DNA of 25,487 bases from Thermoplasmata archaeon (GTDB lineage: Archaea; Thermoplasmatota; Thermoplasmata; RBG-16-68-12; JAJISG01): contig JBHHWA010000001.1 of the NCBI GenBank assembly GCA_046756285.1, positions 1 through 25,487 on the forward strand, written 5' to 3'. Position numbers and translations under genes: made by a program. Below are positions 831-20,564 of this stretch, in pieces (position 1 is the first letter of the stretch; the number at the start of each line of letters is the position of its first letter). Under the pieces are notes generated by a model. That model did no database searches. It was not told the DNA's origin and saw nothing but the letters and a program-made list of their open reading frames with translations.

Positions 831-3800
831 ATGGCCAGGCTCTCAGATGGGGGGCGTCGCACGCTGCAGAGACGAAAGCTGGGCCATTCCGGGGTCGCGG
901 AGGTCCTCGGGACCATCCTGGTCCTGCTGATCACCGTCATCATCTTCTCGAGCATCGTGCTCTGGGTCTTCACCCTTCCCGCGCCCAGGGCGGGGGTCAA
1001 CGTCTCCTTCAGTGGGTTCCTATCCGGCAGCTACGTGGGCGGGATTTGGAACGGGGCTGATGTTCAGCTCAACCACTTGGGAGGCCAAGACCTTCACGAG
1101 GGGAGCACGGGAGTATACCTAACGATTGACAACACGACGGAGGTCCTGAAGACGCAGGGCACCTTCTTCGACGGAGTCAGTGTCAAGGAATACGGAGTGA
1201 AGGGGCCCGATGCCACGTGGAACGTCGGAGAGACGTGGACATACCTGAACGAGAGCATCCCCCAGGATGCGAATGTCTCCGTTATGGTCGTGGACCTCGA
1301 ACGGGGCCTACTCCTCTGGCGGAAACCGCTCCTCGGAGCCCCGGGCACGCTGGCCCCCATCTTCCTCGACAAGTGGGTGGACTCTGCCCCGGCGACGGCC
1401 ACGAGGGACCCCGTAACGCCTGACGACAGGTTCACAATCTTCGCCAAAGTGACCGATCCCGACGCAGATCTCAGCCCCGAATCCGTCTGGGGCTACCTGA
1501 CCTTCGGAATCGGCGGCACGCCCCTCGGGTACGTCCAGTTGCGAGATGACGGGAACCCCTTGGTTGGAGACCTCATCGCCGGCGATGGGGTCTACACCCG
1601 TACGCTGAGTTACCAGGCCCAGAAAAAGTGGGACGGGGGCATCATCATCCTCAACGCGACCGACGACGGAGGACGAGGGACCCAGACTAGGCTCATCCTG
1701 AAGGTTCTGGACACGGGAACCTCCACGCAGGTCGGCGGTCCCGGCTCGCTCGGTTTTGGCTCTGCTACCCAGCGATACGAGATCTTCGAGGAGAGCGATT
1801 GGGATTCGCTCCGCTGGGAGGCCACGGCGACCCGGAGCTTCACGAAAGGCCAAGGCGTGGTGGTGGTCGTAGCCACGAAGAAGATCGTCAGCCCAGACTT
1901 GCGCAACACTTTCCTGCTGTGGGATCCCTCTAACAATCGGGAGGTCGTGTATAGCGACCCCCCCTACACGAACCCCGTTACAGGAAGTTCCGTTCCCTCC
2001 ACGACGGACGCCTTTGTGCTGGCGGAATTCGTCAGCGGTTTCTACGTCTACGAGTACCGTTTCACCACTACAAGCGCGGCCCACGGGTTCGACGGATTCC
2101 AGTTGCAATTCGGACACTATCCCCTCGAGTTCGAGTTGATCACAAGCCAGACCCCTGCTCCGGAAAACAGGCTCTACGTGACCGATGCCATCCAGGTGAC
2201 CGATGCCGCCGGCGGAAGCCCCGACTACCCGAGGGTGGAGACCTATGAGGACGCGGCCCACACGATCTCCGCGACGGCCTTCAACTTCACCGAGACGATG
2301 TACGTGAAGGTGTTCGTAGGGAGCACCGATGGAAGCTTTGACGTCGGAAACGTCGTCATATCCGACTTCTTTGGGAACCTTCCCATCTGGGCATCCCCGG
2401 GGACCACCCCAGTGAGCGTCGCCCTCATCAATGACACCATCAGCTACGCCTTCTCCGTGGATCTCTCCAAACCCAACCTGGATCCCTGGAACTTTGGGAC
2501 GGTCTCCTACAACCTGGCTGTTATGAATGTCCAGGACGCAGACGAGAACTATGGCCGGGTCTGGGGACAGATTCAGGTCACCGGTCCGCGCTGGAAATTG
2601 GACATCGCAATGGGCCTCTTTTCGACCGCACAACAGAACTTTGACCTGGCAATCTACGGGGACTTCTTCGACAACGTGGAAGGCTGGACCGAGTATCCCT
2701 ACGAGACCTTCCTCGCATCCCCGGGGAGGAAGGCGCCAGACAACCCTATCACATCGCAGGTATTGGGCGACCTCGACGGGGACGGTGACCTCGACATTCT
2801 CTCAGGGACGAAGAACGGCGAGGTCTGGTGGTATCGGAACCGAGATGGGAAGGCCCACTCTCTGAGTCGCACTGTCATCGACACACTCACATCGACTGTA
2901 AGCGGGGCCGCCGTCGGGCACGTCGACGCGGACACTGATCTGGATGCGGCGGTGGGGACCACCACGGGAGACGTATGGTGGTACCGGAACGACGGGTCCT
3001 GGTCTCCCAACTTCGTGGACAACACGGGGGCCGGGGTCTCCGCCCTGCAGCTAGCCGATGTCAATGGAGACGGCGCCGCGGACCTGATTGTCGGCCTCGA
3101 CGCGGGACCGAACAGCGTGCGGGTTTACCTCAACAACGGAGGGGGCGTGTTCGGGACGGTGACGACCACGGAGACCCTCATGAACGCCGACGTGTTGACC
3201 CCGGGCCACGGAACCGTGGGCGGGTCCTTCCTGCTCACAACCGCCAGCGACAACTTGTACCAGCAGGTGGAAGAGGTGGGCTCGGACGGCTTCGTAGCCG
3301 CATTCGAGGCGGCCGGACTGGCCTCGACGGTCCAAGGGACCTTCCTCGACACCTACGCGGCCGATGGCGTCGTTGAAGTCCTCACCGAGGGGGAGGCCCT
3401 TCCGCGGTACACCCTGGGCTTCCCCGGCCATCGCTACCTGTTCCCCAACATGACCGCGACCGCCTCTGAATCCTTCGAGATCCACTTCGTCGGCCACGTC
3501 AGCTCTGGCTCCGAGCCCTTCGCGGTCGGTTGGTCAAAGGACGGGCTTACCGTCGACTGGCTGAGCGGGTTGATTACCGGGCTGACACCGGGGGAGTACA
3601 TCTGGCGTCTCTCCGGAGTGGACTGGAGTGACGAAACCCTCTTTCTTCACATCATGGACGTCGACGATAGCCCGACCGATCGCAACACCGACGAGCAGCT
3701 CACGAGTCTCTCCGTCGACCTACTCTACATCTTGCAACCCGAGAGCGGCAGCATCAGCAGCCTCGCGAAGGTGTGGAGGTCGTCCACCATCCCGGGGGGG

Positions 3801-4619
3801 AAGGACGCCTACAAGTTCTTCGCGGAGGCGCATCACACCTTCAACGCCGAGAACGACCACCTCCTGCTCCAGGTCGCGGCCGCCCCCCACGGTCCCTACT
3901 ACGGCCTCCTCGTCGTCACGAAGACCACCGATGACGATGGCACCCAGAGCGTGTCCCTTCCCACCGACATCGGCGGCCTCTCCCTCTACATCCTCGCCCA
4001 GGATACGGATCGGAGGTTCGGTGCGACCGTGCTCGACACGTTCTGGTTCGACCACCTGTACTTCAAGTCCTACGAGGCAATCCCCGCCTACTGGCCCATC
4101 GGCGTGGGCGCCCCCACCCAGGGTCTCACCGTGGCGGACATCGACGGGGATGGACACCAGGACATCGTCGTCGCCACGCCGGGTACGGCCCTCCACGTCT
4201 ACTACGGCGACGGGACGGGGAAGGCCTGGCCCTCCAGTGACACGCTAACCGCTACTGGAGCCCTGCTCACGGTGGACGTCGGACTCGTGTCCGCCGACTT
4301 GGCACTCGATATCGTCGTCGGAACCGGTGATACCAAGATACTGCTCTTCACGAACGGCGGTTCCCGAGGGTCTTGGTTCCTCTCCACGATCTCCTCCCTG
4401 TCGACCACCACTACCTCGACGCTCCGCGTGGGGGATGTCGACGGGGACAATTGGGATGACGTCATCTTTGGGACGGAGAACGGCTTCCTGGTGTACCTTC
4501 GAAACGATCAGGGCACCGGCTGGAGGACGACCATCGTCATCCAGATGAACGACCGGATTGACGTGATCGACATCGGGGATGCCGACAGGGGCGTCCTGAT
4601 TCGACCCCATCCTTACTGA
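831..4619 (+). CDS. Giant type IV pilin-like surface protein, paralog 1: class III signal peptide/archaeal pilin N-terminus, stalk, FG-GAP beta-propeller with inserted nested domains (1262 aa)
   Basis: HSG|VAEVLGTILVLLITVIIFSSIVLWV pilin-type N-terminus (DUF1628-like); LRDDGNPLVGDLIAGDGVY motif; six FG-GAP repeats (e.g. LGDLDGDGDLDIL, LADVNGDGAADLIVG, VADIDGDGHQDIVVA, VGDVDGDNWDDVIFG) plus a C-terminal half repeat IGDADRG; many N-x-S/T sequons. Start uncertain (ATG831 or ACG861). Confidence 0.88.
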   Translation: MARLSDGGRRTLQRRKLGHSGVAEVLGTILVLLITVIIFSSIVLWVFTLPAPRAGVNVSFSGFLSGSYVGGIWNGADVQLNHLGGQDLHEGSTGVYLTIDNTTEVLKTQGTFFDGVSVKEYGVKGPDATWNVGETWTYLNESIPQDANVSVMVVDLERGLLLWRKPLLGAPGTLAPIFLDKWVDSAPATATRDPVTPDDRFTIFAKVTDPDADLSPESVWGYLTFGIGGTPLGYVQLRDDGNPLVGDLIAGDGVYTRTLSYQAQKKWDGGIIILNATDDGGRGTQTRLILKVLDTGTSTQVGGPGSLGFGSATQRYEIFEESDWDSLRWEATATRSFTKGQGVVVVVATKKIVSPDLRNTFLLWDPSNNREVVYSDPPYTNPVTGSSVPSTTDAFVLAEFVSGFYVYEYRFTTTSAAHGFDGFQLQFGHYPLEFELITSQTPAPENRLYVTDAIQVTDAAGGSPDYPRVETYEDAAHTISATAFNFTETMYVKVFVGSTDGSFDVGNVVISDFFGNLPIWASPGTTPVSVALINDTISYAFSVDLSKPNLDPWNFGTVSYNLAVMNVQDADENYGRVWGQIQVTGPRWKLDIAMGLFSTAQQNFDLAIYGDFFDNVEGWTEYPYETFLASPGRKAPDNPITSQVLGDLDGDGDLDILSGTKNGEVWWYRNRDGKAHSLSRTVIDTLTSTVSGAAVGHVDADTDLDAAVGTTTGDVWWYRNDGSWSPNFVDNTGAGVSALQLADVNGDGAADLIVGLDAGPNSVRVYLNNGGGVFGTVTTTETLMNADVLTPGHGTVGGSFLLTTASDNLYQQVEEVGSDGFVAAFEAAGLASTVQGTFLDTYAADGVVEVLTEGEALPRYTLGFPGHRYLFPNMTATASESFEIHFVGHVSSGSEPFAVGWSKDGLTVDWLSGLITGLTPGEYIWRLSGVDWSDETLFLHIMDVDDSPTDRNTDEQLTSLSVDLLYILQPESGSISSLAKVWRSSTIPGGKDAYKFFAEAHHTFNAENDHLLLQVAAAPHGPYYGLLVVTKTTDDDGTQSVSLPTDIGGLSLYILAQDTDRRFGATVLDTFWFDHLYFKSYEAIPAYWPIGVGAPTQGLTVADIDGDGHQDIVVATPGTALHVYYGDGTGKAWPSSDTLTATGALLTVDVGLVSADLALDIVVGTGDTKILLFTNGGSRGSWFLSTISSLSTTTTSTLRVGDVDGDNWDDVIFGTENGFLVYLRNDQGTGWRTTIVIQMNDRIDVIDIGDADRGVLIRPHPY

Positions 4620-8859: not shown

Positions 8860-8935
8860 GCTTCCCCATCCGCCGACCGGCTAAAGGTTGACGCGTCGCG
8901 AACCTTCTTTAACACGCCCTTCCATCCGGGGCGGA

Positions 8936-10387
8936 ATGCGGGAGGACCTTCTCTCACTCGCCATGGAGTCGGGCGTCCTCCTGGAACCCGAGTTGGCGGA
9001 CTACCTCGCGGGGCGCGCCCACCCCGTCGATAGCCTGCTAGCCATCCTAGACGCGGTGAACCCTCGCCCCCTGGTCCTCACGCTGGAGGAGATCCGGGCC
9101 CTGAACCCGGTGCTTCCTGAGTCTCAGGCCACGCCCGCCTCCGCGCCCGTTGCGGCCCGTATGCGACGCGACCGATCCGGGACCCGCCGGGAGGACCACG
9201 ATCCCGACGTGGTCGTCCTCCAAGACATCACCGGCCGCTCCACATGCACCGGAGAGATGCGGGACTTCTCCCGCTACTTCGACCACCGGTACAAGGCCCT
9301 CTCCTCTCTCCTGCGGGGGAGGCGGGAACTCGTGGGGGCCGTGTCCATCAGCCGCGCCCTCCGCATGGCCCGGGAGGTCCGCGTGATCGGCATCGTCCAG
9401 TCCGTGAAGCGGACCCGGACGGGGAACTACCTGCTCCTCATCGAGGACCAGGAGGCGTCCTGTCAGGTCTTGGTCCCGAGCGAGGGTCCCGGTGTCGACG
9501 GCGCCCCCGTGCCTGACGAGGTCCTCGGGGTCGTGGGTCGCCCCTGGAAGGACGGCATCCTTCTCGCCGAAGAGATCGTGCGGCCGGACATACCCGCCTC
9601 CCACGCCTTCCGCGGGGCGGACGAGGCTGTCAGTGCCGCCTTCATCTCCGACATCCACGTGGGAAGCCGCCTGTTCCTCCGGGACAAGTGGGACCGATTC
9701 GTCCGCTGGTTGGAGACCGAGGAGGCCTCCCGGATCAAGTACCTCGTCGTCGTGGGCGACGTCGTCGATGGCATCGGGGTCTACCCGCGACAAGACGAGG
9801 ACCTGGCCGTGGATGACGTGTACCGGCAGTACGAGGAGGTCGCCGACATGCTGGGCGCCCTCCCGGACGACCTGCAGGTGATCGTTCTCCCGGGCAATCA
9901 CGACGCGACGCGTCCTGCCGAGCCCCAGCCCGCGCTGTCTGAGGCAATCCAGAAAGCCTTCCCCGACGGGGTCCTGTTCGTCGGCAATCCGGCCCTCCTC
10001 CGCCTCCACGGCGTCGACGTGCTCTGCTATCACGGCAAGAGCATGGACGACCTGGTGACGAGCATCCCGGGCGTCACCTACGACCGTCCTCTGGCAGGGA
10101 TGGTGGAGATGCTGAAGCGGCGCCACCTGGCCCCCTCATACGGGGGCAAGACGCCGCTGGCGCCGGAACGAGCCGACCACCTGATCGTCGACCCTCCCCC
10201 CTCTGTCTTCGCCACGGGCCACGTCCACGGGTTCGGGATCGGGGAGTACCGGGGCATCCGCCTCCTTAACGCCTCGACCTGGCAGGCGCAGACCGCCTTC
10301 CAGCGGATGCACAACATCACGCCCAAGCCGGGGATGGTCCCTACTGTGGACCTCCAGACCGGGGAGGCCTTCGCCCAGGCCTTCTGA
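8936..10387 (+). CDS. polB: DNA polymerase D small subunit DP1 (3'-5' exonuclease)
   Basis: OB-fold region (VRVIGIVQSV...LLIED) and phosphoesterase motifs SDIHVG, GDVVDG, PGNHD, YHG, GHVH, plus HLAPSYG. ATG8936 preferred (TTTAAC about 28 nt upstream) over TTG8888. Confidence 0.95.
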   Translation: MREDLLSLAMESGVLLEPELADYLAGRAHPVDSLLAILDAVNPRPLVLTLEEIRALNPVLPESQATPASAPVAARMRRDRSGTRREDHDPDVVVLQDITGRSTCTGEMRDFSRYFDHRYKALSSLLRGRRELVGAVSISRALRMAREVRVIGIVQSVKRTRTGNYLLLIEDQEASCQVLVPSEGPGVDGAPVPDEVLGVVGRPWKDGILLAEEIVRPDIPASHAFRGADEAVSAAFISDIHVGSRLFLRDKWDRFVRWLETEEASRIKYLVVVGDVVDGIGVYPRQDEDLAVDDVYRQYEEVADMLGALPDDLQVIVLPGNHDATRPAEPQPALSEAIQKAFPDGVLFVGNPALLRLHGVDVLCYHGKSMDDLVTSIPGVTYDRPLAGMVEMLKRRHLAPSYGGKTPLAPERADHLIVDPPPSVFATGHVHGFGIGEYRGIRLLNASTWQAQTAFQRMHNITPKPGMVPTVDLQTGEAFAQAF

Positions 10388-11170: not shown

Positions 11171-14100
11171 TTAGGCGGAGGGATCGATAACTATGCCGCG
11201 ATCCACGTCCCCGACGTCGATGCTATAGATCCGAGTTCCGAGTTGCTCGATCACGATGATCTTCCAGACGACCCCTTTATCATGGCGATACCAGCGGATG
11301 TACCCATCCTCCGTGGCGATAACGATGTCGTCCCAGTAGTCCCCATCGATGTCGGCCACGCGGAGGCTGCGCACGTCGTCTTGGTTCGTGTGAATGAGCG
11401 TGCGGGTCCAGGTGCCGTCGTTGGCCCACCAGTAGACCCGGTTGTCTTGGGTCCCTGCCGCGATGTCGTAGGTGGAGTCGGCGTCTAAGAAGCCGACGTC
11501 GACGGCGTTGACCCTGCCCGTGGCCGCCAAGCTGACGGAACCCCAGGCAGGGGCGTATAAGACACGGGCCGTGCTGCCCGCCGCGACCACGATGTCGTTG
11601 TCTCCATCGCCGTCCATGTCAGCCACGGCGAGGTCCTCCACCTGGGGACCGACGTGGATCACCTCTTCGTCAGGGAGCGTAATGAAGCGCCGCACGAAGA
11701 TGTGGTCCACGTAGACGGCGTCCAGGTCCGTGGCGTTCGGATCCCGGTTCGTGTCCCGCACCCGCAGGTAGAGAGGCGCGCCTCCAATGATTGTCGGGAG
11801 ATTCGCCGTCTGGTACTCGTTGTCATCCACGGTCTTCGTCACGGTGATGAGCGTAGACCACGGCCCGGCCGGGGCGAGAGAGCCCTCGACGACGAAATCG
11901 TCGAATTCGCTGTTGAGGGTGTGGTGGGCCTCCACGAAGAGCTTGTATGCGTCCCCACCCGCGCCCACGGGGAAGGACCGCCACTGATGCTCCAAACGGC
12001 TCGTCGTGCCCTGCAGGCCGATAACCACGACTACGACCTGGTCGAGAGAGATCCGGGAGGCCATGCTGTCTGTGGCCGAATCCAGGTTGGACATGTCTGT
12101 GTCTTGGAACACGATGTAAAGGTCACCACCGCCAAATCCGGCGGCGCTCAGGTCATAGATCTTCAGTGTCTCCGTGGTTTCCGTTAGGGTGCCCAAGACC
12201 GAAACACCGCCGGCCCCGACCTTGTAACCAATCTCGAAGGCTTCCGATCCATCCCCCTCGCTAATGAAGCCGCTGACGACGAGGAACGCCCGATCGGTCG
12301 GGCCGAGGGGCGCGACATTCCCCATGACGTACTGGTGCCCTGGTTCGGCGCCCCCCGTGCTGTTCCGCATGAGGTAAAGGTCGTCCTCGAACCACCAAAA
12401 CGCGTCGTAGAACTCCTCCTGCAGCTCCTCGTACACGCCGTCATCCGCGTACGTGTCCAGGTAGCTCCCAGAGAAGACGACGTCGAACTCGGAGAGGATC
12501 TCGTTAACGGGGACGTAAAAGTCCCACACCTCGCCCGGGCCGAGGACCTCCTCGATGGCCTCGTACGTGTTGTCCGACACACGCGTGTCCGCGACGGTCC
12601 CGGTGATGTTCCCAAACACCGGCATGTCCGTTTCGAGCGTGTAGTCGGCCGTCAGTTGTGTGCCAAAGACGCCAAACCCGTTGTTACGGTAGATGATGAC
12701 GTCCCCGCCGTCCGTCCCCGCGACGATGTCGTTGAATCCGTCGCCTCCCGCAGGGTAGACGTCGGCGAGCTTGACCACGTTGATGCCCGGTCCCAGGTTG
12801 GCGACGAGGCTCGGGGTCCAGTCGCCGTCGTTGGAGTAGGTCCAAATCTCCCCGGCGCTGGTCCCGATCACGATGTCGTTGTCGGAGTCCCGATCGATGA
12901 GCCCGATCGCTACCGCCTCCACGCTGTCCGCCAGGTTGTCGATTTCGAAGCGGGTCCATTGGCTCCCATCGCCCAAGGTGTTCCGATACCAGAGGACACG
13001 CCCGACCTCGAGTCCGAAGACCGCATCCAGGTCGCTGTCCTCATCCAAGTCTCCGAGGGCCACATCCAGGAAGTCTCCGCCCCCGAAGGGCGGGCTGCCC
13101 CCGCAGAACCAGAGGAAGCAGTCTCTCCGGAAGGACTCCATGACGGTCCGACTCCAGGCCCCGTCATTCTCGTAGAACGTGGCGTACCAGGTCTCGTCGT
13201 TGCCGAAGAGGAAGAACGTGACTTCGTTCAGGGCCGCGATGGCGTCCAGATCCCAGCGGGCCCCACGGACGATGACCTGGGCAGTGAGCGCGTACTCCTC
13301 GTTGAAGTCGGCGATGCGCTTGATGCGGAAGCCGTAGGCGTTGGTCCCGAAGAGCCAGGGATCCAGGTTCGTGGTCGAGAGGTCGACGTTGAAACGGTAG
13401 GAACGGGTGTCGTTGACCGCGCCCGGGCTCACGGGGTCGTTGCCGGGCGTGGCCCAGACCTGGACACCACTCTCATAGTCCGAGATGACCACGTCGCCAA
13501 AGATGAAGCCGGCGTCCGTGTCCCGGACCGTGACTCGGACGTACATTCTGTCTGTCGTGTTGAATGTGTTCGTTGGCTGCGTGTGGGCCGCGTCCGCGAA
13601 GAACTCGACCTTCGGATAGTCGGGCGCGCTGCCATTCTGTTCCGTCACCAGGATGGAATCAACGGTGGCGAACCGGTTGTTGGGGGGAGGTACGTTGTTG
13701 GCCCGGATCTCCATCGACACGGAGTGCGGCCCAACGACCAGCTGGACGCCATCCCATCCGTACGCACTGGAGTTCGTGCTGAAGCGGTGCTCGTAAACGT
13801 AGAAGCCTCCCACGAAGCCGAGGAAGGTGAAGGCTCGCGTGCTGGAGGGAAGGGAGGTCTGTGTCACGGGATCGTTGTATGGGGCGAAGCTGTAGACCTC
13901 CGGCCTCTGGGGGAGCCCCGAGGGGGAATAGAGGAACACGTCGTTTTGGAGATCGGCGTTCTTCAGCTTCTGGCTGGCCACGACGATGACGACGGTCTCT
14001 CCCTTCCGGAAGGTTCGGGTTCCGTTGGCGTTGTAGCCGTTGGTGTCCCACTCCGTCGCGTTGAAGATGTCATACAGCTGGAGGTCGCTCTCGAGGGCCA

Positions 14101-14986
14101 GGCCCTCGGGGCCCTTGAAGGGGAGTCCCCCGCCCAAGTTCAGGACCTCGAAGATGAGGCGCGTCTGCGCTTCGCGGCCGCCCTGGTCCGTGGCGTTGAG
14201 AATGATGATGCCCCCATCCCAGGTCTGCAGCGCGGCGAAGCTCAGGGCCCGACTGAAGACCCCATCTCCCGCGAGGGCGTCTCCGACGTTCGGGTCCCCG
14301 TTGTCCAGGAGCTGGACGTAGCCAAGGGGGGCGCCGAACCCGAAGGTGATGTAGCCCCAGACGGAGGCCGCGTCCAGGTCCCCATCCGGGTCCCCGACGC
14401 GGGCGTAGATCGCAAAGGTATCGTCCACGCCCACGGGGTCGCGGCTCGGGGTCGAGGGCTCCGAGTCAACCCACTTCTCCAGGAAGACGGGCAGGCGCTC
14501 CCCGCCCTCGCCCAGGAGGATCTGGTCCCAAATGACCGTCCCACGGACGACGTCCACGACCAAAACCGACACCTGGGCGGTACGGTTGATGGTCTCGTTC
14601 TCGTAAAACCACGTCTCCCCGATATTCCAGTGGATGTCGGGGCCATCAACGCCGTAGGGCTTCACGCTCACCCCGTCGAAGTGATTGCCCTGCGTCTTGA
14701 GCGTATGAGTGGTCCCGTCGATGGTGAGGTAGACCCGCGTGTTCGTATCGAGCAGGTCGTCGCCCCCGAGGTGGGTCAGGTTGACGTAGGCGCCGGCCCA
14801 GGATCCGGCCACGTACCGCCCCTCGAGGCCGCCATCGATGCCGGCATTCCCCGCGGCCCGGGGCGCGGGGAGGGTGAAGACCCAGAGAACGATGGTGGAG
14901 AAGATGACGACCGTGATCAGGAGGATGAGAATGGTTCCAATGACCTCTGAGACTCCACGATGGTCCAGAGGTCTCCGCGGCAGCAC
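11171..14986 (-). CDS. Giant type IV pilin-like surface protein, paralog 2: class III signal peptide, stalk, FG-GAP propeller with nested insert (1271 aa)
   Basis: GTG start with GGAGGAG SD; HRG|VSEVIGTILILLITVVIFS; LLDNGDPNVGDALAGDGVF; FG-GAP repeats LGDLDEDSDLD, IGLIDRDSDND, LADVYPAGGDGFND, VADMDGDGDND, VGFLDADSTYD, VADIDGDYWDD, and half repeat VGDVDRG. Confidence 0.9.
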   Translation of the reverse strand: MLPRRPLDHRGVSEVIGTILILLITVVIFSTIVLWVFTLPAPRAAGNAGIDGGLEGRYVAGSWAGAYVNLTHLGGDDLLDTNTRVYLTIDGTTHTLKTQGNHFDGVSVKPYGVDGPDIHWNIGETWFYENETINRTAQVSVLVVDVVRGTVIWDQILLGEGGERLPVFLEKWVDSEPSTPSRDPVGVDDTFAIYARVGDPDGDLDAASVWGYITFGFGAPLGYVQLLDNGDPNVGDALAGDGVFSRALSFAALQTWDGGIIILNATDQGGREAQTRLIFEVLNLGGGLPFKGPEGLALESDLQLYDIFNATEWDTNGYNANGTRTFRKGETVVIVVASQKLKNADLQNDVFLYSPSGLPQRPEVYSFAPYNDPVTQTSLPSSTRAFTFLGFVGGFYVYEHRFSTNSSAYGWDGVQLVVGPHSVSMEIRANNVPPPNNRFATVDSILVTEQNGSAPDYPKVEFFADAAHTQPTNTFNTTDRMYVRVTVRDTDAGFIFGDVVISDYESGVQVWATPGNDPVSPGAVNDTRSYRFNVDLSTTNLDPWLFGTNAYGFRIKRIADFNEEYALTAQVIVRGARWDLDAIAALNEVTFFLFGNDETWYATFYENDGAWSRTVMESFRRDCFLWFCGGSPPFGGGDFLDVALGDLDEDSDLDAVFGLEVGRVLWYRNTLGDGSQWTRFEIDNLADSVEAVAIGLIDRDSDNDIVIGTSAGEIWTYSNDGDWTPSLVANLGPGINVVKLADVYPAGGDGFNDIVAGTDGGDVIIYRNNGFGVFGTQLTADYTLETDMPVFGNITGTVADTRVSDNTYEAIEEVLGPGEVWDFYVPVNEILSEFDVVFSGSYLDTYADDGVYEELQEEFYDAFWWFEDDLYLMRNSTGGAEPGHQYVMGNVAPLGPTDRAFLVVSGFISEGDGSEAFEIGYKVGAGGVSVLGTLTETTETLKIYDLSAAGFGGGDLYIVFQDTDMSNLDSATDSMASRISLDQVVVVVIGLQGTTSRLEHQWRSFPVGAGGDAYKLFVEAHHTLNSEFDDFVVEGSLAPAGPWSTLITVTKTVDDNEYQTANLPTIIGGAPLYLRVRDTNRDPNATDLDAVYVDHIFVRRFITLPDEEVIHVGPQVEDLAVADMDGDGDNDIVVAAGSTARVLYAPAWGSVSLAATGRVNAVDVGFLDADSTYDIAAGTQDNRVYWWANDGTWTRTLIHTNQDDVRSLRVADIDGDYWDDIVIATEDGYIRWYRHDKGVVWKIIVIEQLGTRIYSIDVGDVDRGIVIDPSA

Positions 14987-15239: not shown

Positions 15240-18053
15240 TTAGGGCGGCTCGGACCGCCGAATGGCGATCCCTCGGTCCACGTCGCCGATATCCAGCGAG
15301 TTGATGTTCTTGCCGAGATCAGCGATCCACTGGGTGGACCAGGAGATCCCCTTATCGTGGCGATACCAGAGGATATCTCCCGTCTCGGTGCCGACAAGGA
15401 CGTCGTCCCAGAAGTCCCCGTCGATGTCCCCGACCCGTAGGGTATAGACCTTGTCCGCCGAAGGGACTTGGTTGATCGCCGTGCGGTCCCAGGAGCCGTC
15501 GTTGGCAAACCAATGGACGAAGCCCAGTTCATTGCCCGTGACCACGTCCAGAGTCTCGTCGCCGTCGATATGGCCCACGTCCACGGCGAGGACGAGGGAC
15601 CCCGCCGATAGTCTCGCAGAGGAACCCCAACCGGGGCCGTAGGCGACGATGGCATCGGAGCCTCTGGCCAGCACGATGTCATTGTGCCCGTCGCCGTCCA
15701 CGTCGGCCACCGTCAGGTCCTTGATTTCCGCTCCCACCCCGAAGGCCTGGGAGGTCGGGAAGTCACCGAGGCCGTCGTTCTCGTAGATTCGGAGGAAACC
15801 ACTCTTCATCCCCGCCACGATGTCGTTGAACCCGTCGCCCGTGACGTCCGCCAGCTTGATCTCCACGACCTCACTGCCGAGATCCGCCACGAGGGTGCGG
15901 CTCCAGACCCCCGTGTTATAGTAGGCATAGATCTGGCCGAGGACATTGCCCGTCACCACGTCGTTGTCCGTATCCCGGTCGATGCGGCCCGCGTCGACGG
16001 TCCATAAGGCCACGCCCTGGTCGTCAATCTGTATGCGCTGCCAGAAGTTACCCGCTCCGTCCAAGTTTCTGTACCAGAAGAGGGGGGCCACTTCGGCGGC
16101 AGTGACGGCGTCCAGGTCCCCATCCTCGTCCATATCGGCCAAGGTGATGTCGTGGAACGGCCCGCGGCCCCAGGGCGGGTCCGGATCCATGGGCGTGGAC
16201 TGATGGTACTCGATGAGATAGACCGCCCATGGGGGGATGTTCTCGAAGAAGAGGGCATACCACTTCTGGTCGAAGATGGGGTGGCCGAACTCCTCGTTGG
16301 CGGTGACGACGTCCAGCTTCCAACGCGGACCCTGGACCGTCACCTGAGCCGCGAGGGCGTACACCTCGTTGCCATCTCGAATCTCCTTGATACGGAACCC
16401 GTAGGAGTTGATTCCCGGCAACCATGCATCCGCGTTGTTGTTCGAGAGGTCTACAGAGAACGTGTAGTTCCGGATGTCCAGGATGGACAGTGGGCCGATG
16501 GGATCGACACCTGGGGTCGCCCAGATCTGAACGCCGCCGAAGTAGTCGGAGACGAACACGTCTCCGGCGCTCACGGACAGGTCTGTCTCCCGAACGGTGA
16601 CCTTCACGTACATCACGTCCGTGTAGTTGAAGCTCGTCGCTTGTTGGGTGTAGCCCGCGTCCTTGTAGAACGTGAGTCGGGGATAGTCGGGAGAGCCACC
16701 CGCGTCGTCCGTGACGGTGATGGTGTCTGTGGTCGCAAACCGGTTCAGAGGAGGGCCCGCGATGGAGGACTTCAGCTCGATGGTCAGGGGGTACTGCCCG
16801 TAGGCCAGCTGGACCCCGTCGAACCCGGCGTCCGCCGATGTGGTGCTGAACCGGTGCTCGTACACGTAGTAGTCGCCCACGAACTCCACGAAAGAGAACG
16901 CCTTCGTGCTGGAGGGGGTGGTCGTCTCCCCCACGGGCTCGTTATACGGCGGGTCACTATACACGAGGGGGGTGAGCGGGACCACCGAGGGATCGTGCAT
17001 GAAGAAGTCGTTCTTGAAATCCAAGTCCCGTAGGGTCTGGCTCGCCACGACAACCACCACCGTTTGTCCCTTGACGAAGGTTCGCGTGCTCGTGGCATTC
17101 CAGCGGTTGGCATTCCAGTCCGACTCCTCATAAATGTCGAAGCGCTGGACACTCGAGGCGAAGGTCAGGGCCACGGGCCCCGCGGGGTCTGGGATGCTCC
17201 CGGTGTCCACGACCCGGAGAGTGAGGCGCGTCTGCGCTTCGCGGCCGCCCTGGTCCGTGGCGTTAAGGATGATGATCCCCCCATCCCAGCTCAGCATGGC
17301 GGCGAAACTCAGTGAACGACTGAAGACTCCATCTCCGGCCAGGGCGTCTCCGATGTTGGGATCCCCGTTGTCCAGCAGCTGCACGTAGCCAAGCGGCCCG
17401 CCGAATCCGAAGGTCAGGTACCCCCAAACGGAGGCCGGATTGAGGTCCCCATCGGGGTCCCCGACCCGGGCGTAGATCGCGAAGGTGTCGTCCACGGCCA
17501 CGGGATCGCGGCTCAGCGTCGAAGGCTCTGAATCGAACCACTTCTCCAGGAAGACGGGCAGGTGCTCCCCGCCCTCGCCCAAGAGGATTTGGTCCCAGAC
17601 GACCGTTCCGCGGACCACGTCCGCGACCAAAACGCCGACCTCCGCGGTGATGGGGATCGTCTCGTTCTCGTAGGTCCACGTCTCCCCGATATTCCAGTGG
17701 ACGTCGGGACCATCGACGCCGTACGGCTTTACGCTCACGCCGTCAAAGTGACTTCCTTGGGTCTTGAGCGTGTGCGTAGTCCCGTCGATGGTGAGGTAGA
17801 CACGAGTGTTTGGATCCAGCAGATCATCCCCGCCAAGGTGCGTGAGGTTGACGTAGGCCCCGGCCCAGGATCCGGCCACGTACCGCCCCTCGAGGCCGCC
17901 ATCGATGCCGGCATTCCCCGCGGCCCGGGGCGCGGGGAGGGTGAAGACCCAGAGAACGATGGTGGAGAAGATGACGACCGTGATCAGGAGGATGAGAATG
18001 GTTCCAATGACCTCTGAGACTCCACGATGGTCCAGAGGTCTCCGCGGCAGCAC
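15240..18053 (-). CDS. Giant type IV pilin-like surface protein, paralog 3: same architecture but an uninterrupted FG-GAP propeller (937 aa)
   Basis: N-terminus identical to paralog 2; six consecutive FG-GAP repeats plus half repeat IGDVDRG; lacks the ~310-330 aa insert. Confidence 0.9.
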   Translation of the reverse strand: MLPRRPLDHRGVSEVIGTILILLITVVIFSTIVLWVFTLPAPRAAGNAGIDGGLEGRYVAGSWAGAYVNLTHLGGDDLLDPNTRVYLTIDGTTHTLKTQGSHFDGVSVKPYGVDGPDVHWNIGETWTYENETIPITAEVGVLVADVVRGTVVWDQILLGEGGEHLPVFLEKWFDSEPSTLSRDPVAVDDTFAIYARVGDPDGDLNPASVWGYLTFGFGGPLGYVQLLDNGDPNIGDALAGDGVFSRSLSFAAMLSWDGGIIILNATDQGGREAQTRLTLRVVDTGSIPDPAGPVALTFASSVQRFDIYEESDWNANRWNATSTRTFVKGQTVVVVVASQTLRDLDFKNDFFMHDPSVVPLTPLVYSDPPYNEPVGETTTPSSTKAFSFVEFVGDYYVYEHRFSTTSADAGFDGVQLAYGQYPLTIELKSSIAGPPLNRFATTDTITVTDDAGGSPDYPRLTFYKDAGYTQQATSFNYTDVMYVKVTVRETDLSVSAGDVFVSDYFGGVQIWATPGVDPIGPLSILDIRNYTFSVDLSNNNADAWLPGINSYGFRIKEIRDGNEVYALAAQVTVQGPRWKLDVVTANEEFGHPIFDQKWYALFFENIPPWAVYLIEYHQSTPMDPDPPWGRGPFHDITLADMDEDGDLDAVTAAEVAPLFWYRNLDGAGNFWQRIQIDDQGVALWTVDAGRIDRDTDNDVVTGNVLGQIYAYYNTGVWSRTLVADLGSEVVEIKLADVTGDGFNDIVAGMKSGFLRIYENDGLGDFPTSQAFGVGAEIKDLTVADVDGDGHNDIVLARGSDAIVAYGPGWGSSARLSAGSLVLAVDVGHIDGDETLDVVTGNELGFVHWFANDGSWDRTAINQVPSADKVYTLRVGDIDGDFWDDVLVGTETGDILWYRHDKGISWSTQWIADLGKNINSLDIGDVDRGIAIRRSEPP

Positions 18054-18246: not shown

Positions 18247-19194
18247 ATGCCCAAGGAGGAGGCACGCCGTCTCCCACCCTCTCTTGTCAGCTTCCTGCGG
18301 GACCTAGCCGTGGCCTTCCTCCTCGTGGCCATCGTCTTTGCCGCCCTCTTCGCTTTCGCCCGCACCTGGCCCCCCATGGTCGTGGTGGAGAGCGGCAGCA
18401 TGCAGCACAGCAACACGGAGAGCTTCATCGGCGTGGTGGACACGGGGGACATCGTGATCGTCCAGACGGCCCCCCTCCGGCAGGACATCGCCACCTACGT
18501 GCAGGGCCGCGCCGCCGGCTATACGACCTACGGCGACTTCGGGGATGTGATCGTTTTCCAGGATCCCGATCCCAGGGCCCCGGAGGGGAGGTGGATCATT
18601 CATCGGGCCTTGGTCTTCCTGGCCTGGAACGAGACGGCCATGGGCTTCGACATTCCTACCCTCGAATCCCTGGAGCGGGGTATTGACTGGGACTCCAGCG
18701 CGGCCACCCCGTTCGGTCTCGGCCCGGGCGATTCCGTGGTCCTGATGGGCGTCGGTTTCCGCGAACGCGATCTGACCCTCCGGATCGACGACTTCTACGG
18801 CGACCGGGACCCCCAGGACTGTCCTGCTTCCTGCGAAGGATACGTCACGATGGGGGATAGAAACGCCCCCACCTTCGACGATGACCTCGTCTTCCAGGGT
18901 CTCGTCCTTGGGCGCGCGCGGGGAGAGCTCCCGTGGTTCGGTCTCCTGAAGCTCACCTTCGCAGGCCCCTTCGTGTGGGGCGATTCCGAGGCCCCCGCCA
19001 ACAGCTGGACGGCCCTGACCGTCTCCCTAATTCTCCTCATCGCCGGTCCCATTGGCCTCGATGTCGGGCTCTCCCTCTTGGCTGCCCGCCGGAAAGAGGC
19101 CGAGTCGGACAACCCCGGGGAGGGCGAGCCGGACGCGAACCCGCATGGGGAGGAGGGGCCGCCGGAGGAAGGGGAGGATCCGTCGGCTAAATGA
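18247..19194 (+). CDS. Signal peptidase I, S26 family (archaeal Sec11-like, Ser-His type)
   Basis: N-terminal TM, PPMVVVESGSM (catalytic Ser), IIHRA (His), VTMGDRN, C-terminal TM and acidic tail. Confidence 0.9.
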   Translation: MPKEEARRLPPSLVSFLRDLAVAFLLVAIVFAALFAFARTWPPMVVVESGSMQHSNTESFIGVVDTGDIVIVQTAPLRQDIATYVQGRAAGYTTYGDFGDVIVFQDPDPRAPEGRWIIHRALVFLAWNETAMGFDIPTLESLERGIDWDSSAATPFGLGPGDSVVLMGVGFRERDLTLRIDDFYGDRDPQDCPASCEGYVTMGDRNAPTFDDDLVFQGLVLGRARGELPWFGLLKLTFAGPFVWGDSEAPANSWTALTVSLILLIAGPIGLDVGLSLLAARRKEAESDNPGEGEPDANPHGEEGPPEEGEDPSAK

Positions 19195-20419
19195 GGGTCG
19201 TCTGGACCTTGGGCCGATAGCTGCGCAGCTCCATCAGCACGTCGTCGCGGGAGAGGATTCGCTTCACGTCCGGCGCCGAGACGCTGGATTGAATCTCCTT
19301 CGTCCGCCCACCACGTCCGAAGGACTTGACCTTGGCGTTGATGAGCCCCAACATGTCCAGCTCCGAGATGAGGTCCGTCACCCGTCGCTGGGTTAGCGGG
19401 CTGAGGCCGGCCCGCTTGCAGAGCTGCGAGTAGGTGTCGTAAACCTCTCCCGTCGTGAGCTTCACGATGCCCACCTCCTGCTGTAGGATGATGCCCAGGA
19501 GGATGAGCTTCGAGTGGGTGGGCAGGGAGCGCACGGCCTCGATGACCAGGTCGAGCTCGATCTTGTTCTTCGCGCGCTGGACCAGGGCCTCCGTGATGCG
19601 GCTTCGACCCTTGCGGTCCGTCAGTTCGCCGGCGACTCGGAGGAGGTCCAGGGCCCGCCGGGCGTCCCCATGCTCCTGGGCCGCCAGAGCCGCGATGAGG
19701 GGGATGACCCCGTTCTCGATGACGCCAGGGTCGAAGGCGAGTTGCGCCCGCTGCTCGAGGATGTCACCGAGCTCCTTGGCGTTGTAAGGCGGGAAGACCA
19801 TCTTCTCGTCGCTGAGCCGGCTCTTCACGCGCGGGTCGAGAAACTCCGTGAACTTCAGGTCGTTCGAGATCCCAATGAGGCTGACCTTGGCCCGATCCAG
19901 GTCGTCGTTGATCTTCGTAAGGTGGTACAACACGTCGTCGCCGCTCTTGTAGACCAGCTTGTCGATCTCGTCCAAGCAGATGACGACGACCCGCGGCGCC
20001 TCGTCAATCTTCCCGCGGAGGAGGTTGTACACCCGCTCCGTGGAGAGACCGGTGAAAGGGATGCGCTCGTCGAAGTCCTGGATGAACCGGTTTCCCACGT
20101 TCTGGAAGACCCCGTAGGGGGTGTCCACGATCTCGCAGTTGATGTAGAAGTACTCCACCCGGTCCTCGATGTCGGCCCGCCGGAACTCGTTCCCCACGTA
20201 CTTCACGACGGCCGTCTTCCCCGTCCCCGTCTTCCCGAAGATCATCACGTTGGAGGGCATCTCCCCCCGGAGGGCCGTGGCCAGAACGGAAGCCAGCTGG
20301 TTGATCTGCCGCTCCCGATGCGGGAGGCTGTCGGGAATGTAGGAAGGGCGGAGGACGTCCCTGTTCTCCCGGAAGATGGATGTCGTGCGAAGGTAGGGTT
20401 GGAAGATGTTCCCTTCCAT
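19187..20419 (-). CDS. cdc6: Orc1/Cdc6 replication initiator
   Basis: YIPDSLPHRERQI, Walker A GKTGTGKT, Walker B LDEID, DPRVKSRL, GDARRALDLLR, winged helix ISELDMLGLINAKV..GRGGRT. Start is ATG20419 or the in-frame ATG20479. Confidence 0.96.
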   Translation of the reverse strand: MEGNIFQPYLRTTSIFRENRDVLRPSYIPDSLPHRERQINQLASVLATALRGEMPSNVMIFGKTGTGKTAVVKYVGNEFRRADIEDRVEYFYINCEIVDTPYGVFQNVGNRFIQDFDERIPFTGLSTERVYNLLRGKIDEAPRVVVICLDEIDKLVYKSGDDVLYHLTKINDDLDRAKVSLIGISNDLKFTEFLDPRVKSRLSDEKMVFPPYNAKELGDILEQRAQLAFDPGVIENGVIPLIAALAAQEHGDARRALDLLRVAGELTDRKGRSRITEALVQRAKNKIELDLVIEAVRSLPTHSKLILLGIILQQEVGIVKLTTGEVYDTYSQLCKRAGLSPLTQRRVTDLISELDMLGLINAKVKSFGRGGRTKEIQSSVSAPDVKRILSRDDVLMELRSYRPKVQTTLI

Positions 20420-20564
20420 GAAGGACTCCCCTGAGAAGGCGGCTCCCCCAAAAGGTCCGCCCCCTTGGACCGACGGCATAACCCGCGTCTCTACAAAAGG
20501 CTTTGTTTCGACGGCTGCCGAACAACTTTTCTGGAGGGTCTGGCGGTACTGGCCTCGGCGGGAA

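Follow-up and report, generated by a model that had tools for sequence, protein, structure and literature searches.

The 25,487-nucleotide stretch analyzed here (the window; contig JBHHWA010000001.1, positions 1 to 25,487) is a chromosomal piece of a guanine- and cytosine-rich Thermoplasmata archaeon, whose genes include Cdc6/Orc1, the PolD small subunit, NadE and ValRS. It encodes three paralogous proteins, P0001, P0002 and P0003, which follow a common layout: an archaeal pilin-type N-terminus, a stretch of about 550 residues that matches no family, and an FG-GAP propeller at the C-terminus. Their relatives carry the labels Thermoplasmata or Thermoplasmatota. The subject of this analysis is an insert in the propeller of P0001, in which one domain, A, is interrupted by a complete homologous domain, B. 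Contiguous domains of about 150–160 amino acids that are homologous to both occur in other proteins and are labeled X below. P0001 comprises the following features.

831..4619, plus strand: P0001 gene (paralog 1), 1262 amino acids; pilin-type N-terminus, about 550 amino acids without family match, 7-blade FG-GAP propeller with nested insert
888..1133, plus strand: archaeal type IV pilin N-terminal domain (residues 20-101, PF07790); class III signal peptide and hydrophobic helix
2748..3152, plus strand: FG-GAP blades 1-3 (residues ~640-774); DxDxDG-type loops at residues 647, 699 and 743
3153..3278, plus strand: A-start (residues 775-816); putative ascending stalk strand, first strands and short helix of host domain A
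3219-3275, plus strand: start motif of A, GGSFLLTTASDNLYQQVEE (residues 797-815)
3279..3746, plus strand: domain B (residues 817-972); complete predicted jelly roll belonging to family X, within a loop of A
3333-3389, plus strand: start motif of B, QGTFLDTYAADGVVEVLTE (residues 835-853)
3639-3731, plus strand: end motif LFLHIMDVD...SLSVDLLYI (residues 937-967)
3747..4103, plus strand: A-rest (residues 973-1091); remaining strands of A, the last being the putative descending stalk strand (residues 1070-1089)
3984-4064, plus strand: end motif LYILAQDTD...TFWFDHLYF (residues 1052-1078)
4104..4616, plus strand: FG-GAP blades 4-7 (residues 1092-1262); loops at residues 1103, ~1150, 1202 and ~1247

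The pilin family Pilin_N (PF07790) was recognized in all three paralogs above its gathering cut-off of 25.2 bits (29.0 in P0001, 41.9 in P0002, 40.7 in P0003), and direct reading of the P0001 translation revealed the motif G|VAEVLGTILVLLITV at the class III signal peptide region. The propeller scored above the cut-offs of FG-GAP_3 (PF13517, 89.8 bits) and FG-GAP (PF01839, 46.4 bits); a motif scan combined with direct reading identified seven loops, either of the DxDxDG type or degenerate. No Pfam family matched residues ~170-640 (window 1341-2750, ~470 amino acids), which separate the pilin N-terminus from the propeller, at E up to 10; choice-of-anchor X reached a sub-threshold 19.8 bits against a cut-off of 25 at residues 236-263. 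The 1262-residue protein contains no cysteine and eight N-x-S/T sequons. The single sequon of the insert, NMT at residue 873, lies in B and reads NIT or NVT in closer orthologues.

A three-paralog alignment defined the insert of P0001 as 317 residues (775-1091, window 3153-4103) and that of P0002, at the equivalent site, as 337 residues. In P0003 the chain passes from ...GDF directly to GVGAE... over 7 residues, and blades 3 and 4 are intact. As three DxDxDG-type loops precede the insert of P0001 and four come after it, it is located between blades 3 and 4. A first-pass annotation made from the letters of the sequence had proposed an insert of about 310 residues between FG-GAP repeats 3 and 4, at 3156-4090, and the alignment bears this out with small shifts of the boundaries. 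The features of the other two paralogs are listed here.

11171-14986, minus strand: P0002 gene (paralog 2), 1271 amino acids
11654..12664, minus strand: nested insert of P0002 (residues ~775-1111); own-genome match at 11648-12679, E 2.7e-43
15240-18053, minus strand: P0003 gene (paralog 3), 937 amino acids
15738..15758, minus strand: insert-less junction of P0003, 7 residues against 317-337 in P0001/P0002
14086-14986 and 17153-18053, minus strand: high-identity patch of P0002 and P0003, first ~300 codons, from alignment identity

Self-BLAST of the insert returned the identity match only. Pairwise BLAST related the two start motifs to each other (E 0.007); the end motifs were not detected when B was compared with A-rest (best E 0.48). 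The Pfam search of the insert gave noise only (MS_N 15.6 bits, Big_15 12.7 bits, at E up to 10), and the NCBIfam search gave no match. The split became visible in a phmmer search with residues 770-1095 against 1.84 billion representatives, which returned 288 matches. A full-length match was limited to members of the archaeal pilin-propeller family. In targets outside that family, the strong match covered query positions ~200-320, i.e., A-rest, and in 83 of 151 targets a weak match to A-start (query ~14-51) was found about 10 residues upstream of it, as opposed to the 160 residues that separate the two pieces in the P0001 query. In 26 more of the A-rest targets, the upstream stretch corresponded to the start of B rather than to A-start.

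A profile of X was then the means of comparison, built from 140 contiguous segments of other proteins, none of them from the pilin-propeller family. Profile positions 8-48 match P0001 residues 778-820 (A-start, 14.6 bits), positions 20-154 match residues 830-968 (whole B, 12.8 bits), and positions 52-158 match residues 973-1083 (A-rest, 83.9 bits). About 45 family members show either all three parts of this pattern or the outer two, and it confirms the order A-start, whole B, A-rest that had been read from the motifs. Profile–profile comparison by hhalign aligned B with X over 130 columns (probability 99.2%, E 2.5e-19) and A-start with columns 6-31 of B (probability 93.1%, E 3.1e-7); A-rest matched columns 49-155 of B over 101 columns (probability 95.1%, E 3e-8). 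The matches between A and B are collinear, with the pieces of A in order. All four start and end motifs quoted in the first-pass annotation are present, and their relatedness is above chance in these comparisons (A-start with B, A-rest with B). Taken together, the matches to the X profile and the profile–profile results identify B as a second, whole X domain and A as a single X domain that is broken between profile positions 48 and 52.

The resemblance of A and B could also be explained by convergence or very remote ancestry, with B an unrelated captured jelly roll. The low score of B against X in the subfamily of P0001, together with the failure of pairwise BLAST to detect anything beyond the first motif, would fit such an origin. 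However, the orthologous B domains of a distant branch (P0206, P0208-P0216) reach 84-127 bits over the whole X profile, and the hhalign match of B to X and the collinear A–B matches already contradict convergence, which we consider highly improbable.

AlphaFold2 modeling of the insert from 24 aligned family sequences produced a confident all-β structure (predicted local distance difference test, pLDDT, 92.9; predicted template modeling score, pTM, 0.88) with an unusually long first strand (model residues 2-24) and last strand (model residues 301-320). A-start contributes strands 2-24, 26-28 and 42-45 and a helix at 31-34, with a confidence of 92–97 in each 10-residue block. A contiguous X domain, P0042:169-331, was modeled from 73 sequences at a pLDDT of 93.3; its elements follow the order long strand, short strand, one-turn helix, strand, loop, seven strands. 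The order is the same in A-start joined to A-rest and in B. AlphaFold modeling of the insert was the check by which the first-pass annotation had proposed to be judged, and its claim of two homologous β-sandwich domains of a jelly-roll, carbohydrate-binding-like type, with B in a loop of A and A in the propeller, is supported by it: the model is confident and all-β, and A and B are homologous by profile comparison and equal in element order.

When the model was compared with 48,161 PDB representatives by VIA-align, residues 48-203 (B) were placed on jelly rolls of carbohydrate-binding modules (CBMs), with further matches including CBM16, CBM11, CBM4, Eph and reelin domains. The best PDB match is the same for B and X, and their top lists largely coincide (CBM29, CBM22, CBM16, CBM15 and reelin subrepeats). 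As modeled, both thus resemble CBM29, CBM22, CBM16, CBM15, CBM4/9 and the reelin subrepeats in their β-jelly-roll sandwich fold; unlike these, X has no sequence-level membership in Pfam, NCBIfam or a PDB profile search, and sequence identity in the structural alignments is 7–14%. The discontinuous A was superposed on a contiguous 173-residue model across model residues 12-313, with 147 residues aligned at 3.0 Å, and the contiguous single-domain structure 1k12_A aligned across it likewise. Since 147 residues is the length of A-start plus A-rest and not of A-rest alone, the superposition counts against a truncated A-rest. Foldseek on the whole insert retrieved two-domain proteins only, at template modeling scores of 0.2–0.3; this carries no information, since the domains are oriented differently relative to each other. 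Co-folding of A-start and A-rest as separate chains scored 0.55 against 0.01 for the best control. A mark of 0.55 is reached by 58 of 80 solved complexes and by 2 of 110 mismatched pairs, and scores of 0.60 or under comprise 7 of the 80 solved complexes plus both mismatches. At least 45% of contacts were common to the three runs, the pLDDT of the partner fell to as low as 38, and one run scored 0.13, so that this result lends weak support.

That last run, and the weak match of A-start alone to the X profile in P0001, are what could be cited for a reading without true nesting, in which A-start is a degenerate linker remnant, B a full copy and A-rest an N-terminally truncated copy that folds alone. 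Such an arrangement is nevertheless very unlikely. The two outer pieces are exactly complementary on the X profile in about 45 proteins, A-start is modeled with high confidence throughout, its elements together with those of A-rest reproduce the order of the contiguous X model, and single-domain structures, 1k12_A among them, align across both pieces. The insert and its host therefore show the nested architecture A1-B1-C-B2-A2: the host flanks are collinear with one contiguous homologue, the inner domain is complete and folds independently, and the propeller is continuous where the insert is absent. In CBM jelly rolls the N- and C-terminal strands lie side by side, and only because of this adjacency is such a domain insertion possible. 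Judging from the fold, the long ascending strand probably pairs with the descending one, and the resulting two-stranded ribbon would act as a stalk.

Nested insertions with the pattern A1-B1-C-B2-A2 have been catalogued with up to six levels; insertions occur in 20% of multidomain proteins, and 65.8% of events link different homologous groups (Protein Sci 2026, PMC13114784). The succession propeller, A-start, B, A-rest, propeller in P0001 follows this pattern. It differs from the catalogued architectures in that the middle and inner layers are homologous, belonging to one uncurated family, and in that the loop of X that receives B is occupied by different modules in other proteins.

The first-pass annotation had also compared the insert with the I domain of integrin α subunits, and the comparison stands as an analogy. 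Both have a 7-blade FG-GAP propeller with DxDxDG-type loops as host, both place in an inter-blade link a folded module whose termini lie next to each other, and both occur naturally with and without the insert. The next DxDxDG loop of P0001 begins 12 residues after the end of the insert and, given the integrin topology, the interrupted link is probably the strand-4 to strand-1 connection. The analogy does not extend to site or fold. The insert of P0001 lies between blades 3 and 4, whereas that of integrins lies between blades 2 and 3; it is a pair of jelly-roll β-sandwiches, whereas the integrin domain has a vWA/Rossmann fold with a metal ion-dependent adhesion site (MIDAS). No vWA family was matched in Pfam, and the insert model is all-β with CBM jelly rolls as best matches. 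The P0001 insert is also itself nested, and its host is an archaeal pilin-like protein, unlike the heterodimeric integrin receptor; homology of the two inserts is not implied.

More than 50 proteins, at 30–80% identity, carry the insert in frame and at this site; the assemblies that encode them come from NCBI, JGI, ENA and Logan. The source genome is a fragmented metagenome-assembled genome (346 contigs, 74% complete), and gene conversion has affected the neighboring paralogs, which might raise the suspicion of an assembly or gene-calling artefact. Recurrence across independent assemblies already contradicts an artefact, whose probability we regard as negligible. Across 66 aligned family members, 53 carry a nest of 316–353 residues at the propeller site. 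Five proteins (P0003, P0181-P0183 and P0186) have 7 residues only, and three (P0204, P0207 and P0227) have 37–49 residues, perhaps a bare hairpin. In P0232 (1155 amino acids), which sits on a long branch, a single contiguous X domain (residues 858-998, 81 bits) lies within the 213 residues at the site. P0232 and the three short forms may represent intermediate or reduced states. The opposite extreme is found in P0167 (1607 amino acids) and P0018 (a 935-residue fragment), where an insert of ~675 residues contains B, DUF2341 and LamG between A-start and A-rest; DUF2341 and Laminin_G_3 follow B, and the loop of A is ~530 residues longer.

Among the 149 matches outside the family, 163 contiguous X copies and three further split copies were identified. 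The split copy of P0115 belongs to a divergent member of the pilin-propeller family. In the FG-GAP protein P0118 (residues 278-609) and the giant peptidase P0108 (residues 1900-2230), X is split at the loop between profile positions 48 and 52 by ~180–190 residues. The gap of P0118 is MAM-like (26.0 bits when excised and 24.0 bits in the whole protein, both below the 26.9 cut-off) and that of P0108 is weakly CBM_4_9-like (21.8 bits). Because X is split there in P0118, in P0108 and in the pilin-propeller family, the 48-52 loop looks like a recurrent insertion site.

To place the insert-less P0003, the history of the paralogs has to be considered. P0002 and P0003 are 99% identical over their first 100 aligned residues, 81–87% over the next 200 and ~50–58% over the remainder. 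The high identity of the first ~300 residues relative to what lies beyond points to gene conversion between the two genes, which distorts the full-length tree, and approximately unbiased (AU) tests were done after removal of the affected columns. In trees built on shared columns, insert-less forms fall inside a well-supported clade of insert-bearing proteins, which, with midpoint rooting, suggests loss of the whole cassette; P0003 has most likely lost it. One and two losses were not told apart, as placing the insert-less rows in one clade gave p 0.43 in the AU test. B would have arisen by duplication of an X module into a loop of another X module. Mean column identity is 48% in B and 61% in A-rest.

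Outside the archaeal family, X-bearing proteins come from Planctomycetota, Verrucomicrobiota, Armatimonadota and other bacteria. Secreted and surface proteins contain X once or in tandem, in company with LamG, fn3, Big, PKD and InlB-B-repeat modules; X also adjoins S8, M14 and C11 peptidases and alkaline phosphatases. This setting is typical of accessory binding modules. No Pfam family matched X, either on the P0001 insert or on the X region of ten other proteins, and a profile search of the X alignment against PDB sequences returned nothing below E 0.2. No NCBIfam model scored above cut-off. The best, choice-of-anchor J (NF038128), resembles X to the extent of a weak match of the contiguous domain over its C-terminal 100 residues, and differs in that this match stays at 17.6 bits, below the cut-off of 30, and in that the P0001 insert gives none. 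Literature searches found no description of this protein family or of a nested CBM pair, and an ESM Atlas feature search gave sub-threshold leads only (0.80–0.83). A, B and X have in common a conserved Thr/Asp/Glu close to the first strands and a conserved DxD...D...D cluster ahead of and within the last strand or strands. Structural Ca2+ sites occur in many jelly-roll CBMs, and by this analogy the acidic cluster is a probable structural Ca2+ site.

We propose the following mechanism. By means of its class III signal and hydrophobic helix, the protein would be exported and either membrane-anchored or incorporated into a pilus. In the nested architecture described above, the long ascending strand leaves the propeller between blades 3 and 4 and leads into the first strands of jelly-roll A, of about 150 residues; the chain leaves A at the loop between X profile positions 48 and 52, forms the complete B, returns to complete A and re-enters the propeller by the long descending strand. 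The propeller platform would hold the A/B pair at the end of the two-stranded stalk as a distal binding head, with B outermost and evolving faster than A-rest. The head would recognize a glycan or other polymeric surface ligand, which fold and domain context make the likely type of ligand. The extra ligand-binding tip that the first-pass annotation had suggested is likewise a prediction from fold and domain context. The conserved insert-less forms show the head to be an add-on rather than part of the core function.

The main rival accepts the nested architecture and assigns the A/B pair a structural or self-association role instead, as a spacer or shield, or as a self-association contact, for example where these surface proteins pack into a lattice or filament of an archaeon that lacks a conventional wall. 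Several observations are compatible with it. No binding-site residues were mapped; the best-conserved residues (the acidic cluster, Gly and Trp) look structural rather than ligand-specific; and the insert-less P0003 and P0181-P0183 are conserved and presumably functional, making the head dispensable for the core role. Reelin subrepeats, which have roles other than glycan binding, are among the best structural matches. On the other hand, X mainly accompanies secreted hydrolases or belongs to multi-domain surface proteins as an accessory module, which is where targeting modules usually occur, and the distal B evolves faster than A, as expected of a tip that bears specificity. We consider a spacer or self-association role the less likely reading, though a far more plausible one than an arrangement without nesting or a convergent fold.

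To the three-level nest, the A/B binding head, its function and its evolution as proposed, taken as a whole, we assign a probability of about 0.85. Three points weigh against this explanation. X has no sequence match to any CAZy or Pfam CBM family or to a solved structure. The direction of gain and loss hangs on midpoint rooting, and an AU test that joined insert-less and short rows in one clade, under which a single gain is possible, narrowly failed to reject that grouping (p 0.052). Finally, no type IV filament (T4F) assembly genes were found among the open reading frames of the window, the rest of the 74%-complete genome not having been searched.

A bolder extension can be offered only tentatively, at somewhat less than even odds. 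X would be an undescribed, widespread CBM-like family with the 48-52 loop as a recurrent docking site, and the archaeal family would carry it as a removable, exchangeable stalked binding head above an integrin-like propeller. This would amount to an independent prokaryotic re-invention of the integrin principle of an inserted ligand-binding domain, with long and short adhesin isoforms encoded side by side.

Among known pilins, those of Streptococcus sanguinis are modular, PilB carrying a vWA module and PilC a lectin module. Modular pilins and pilus adhesins have in common with P0001 that bulky adhesion modules at the C-terminus, including a propeller (PilY1) or a lectin-like sandwich (PilC), accompany a pilin-type N-terminus or an association with pili. 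It differs from PilB, PilC and PilY1 as a separate archaeal family with no detected sequence relationship to them, and the window lacks T4F assembly genes. PilY-like and large adhesin-like proteins have been described in archaeal T4F loci (PMC13705601). Such adhesin-like proteins are thus already known, as are nested insertions as such (PMC13114784). What is new is the uncurated domain family X, its insertion into its own copy inside a propeller, and the apparent hot-spot loop.

In the window, the tandem adhesin genes are flanked by the PolD small subunit (DP1-like; 8888-10387, plus strand) and Cdc6/Orc1 (19187-20479, minus strand), and on account of these two genes the region may lie near a replication origin. 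A divergent neighbor of paralog 3 is an open reading frame of 315 amino acids (18247-19194, plus strand) with hydrophobic segments at its N- and C-terminal ends. It contains a VVESGSMQH motif resembling type I signal peptidases (S26) and has no Pfam match at E 0.001.

Together, our results indicate X as a new and widespread extracellular domain family that current Pfam and NCBIfam models miss, partly because it is split by its own copy in the archaeal family. With a curated X model, surface proteins and secreted enzymes of bacteria and archaea would be annotated in their hundreds. The P0001 insert provides a clean natural case of a homologue inserted into a homologue and stacked within a propeller, with natural controls in the same family, i.e., forms with no insert, a short insert or a single X, and a triple form. 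These forms would be useful for studies of insertion tolerance and, in protein engineering, for deciding where to insert a domain. For archaeal cell biology, the nested A/B head is likely to be the business end of conserved giant pilin-like proteins of uncultured Thermoplasmata.

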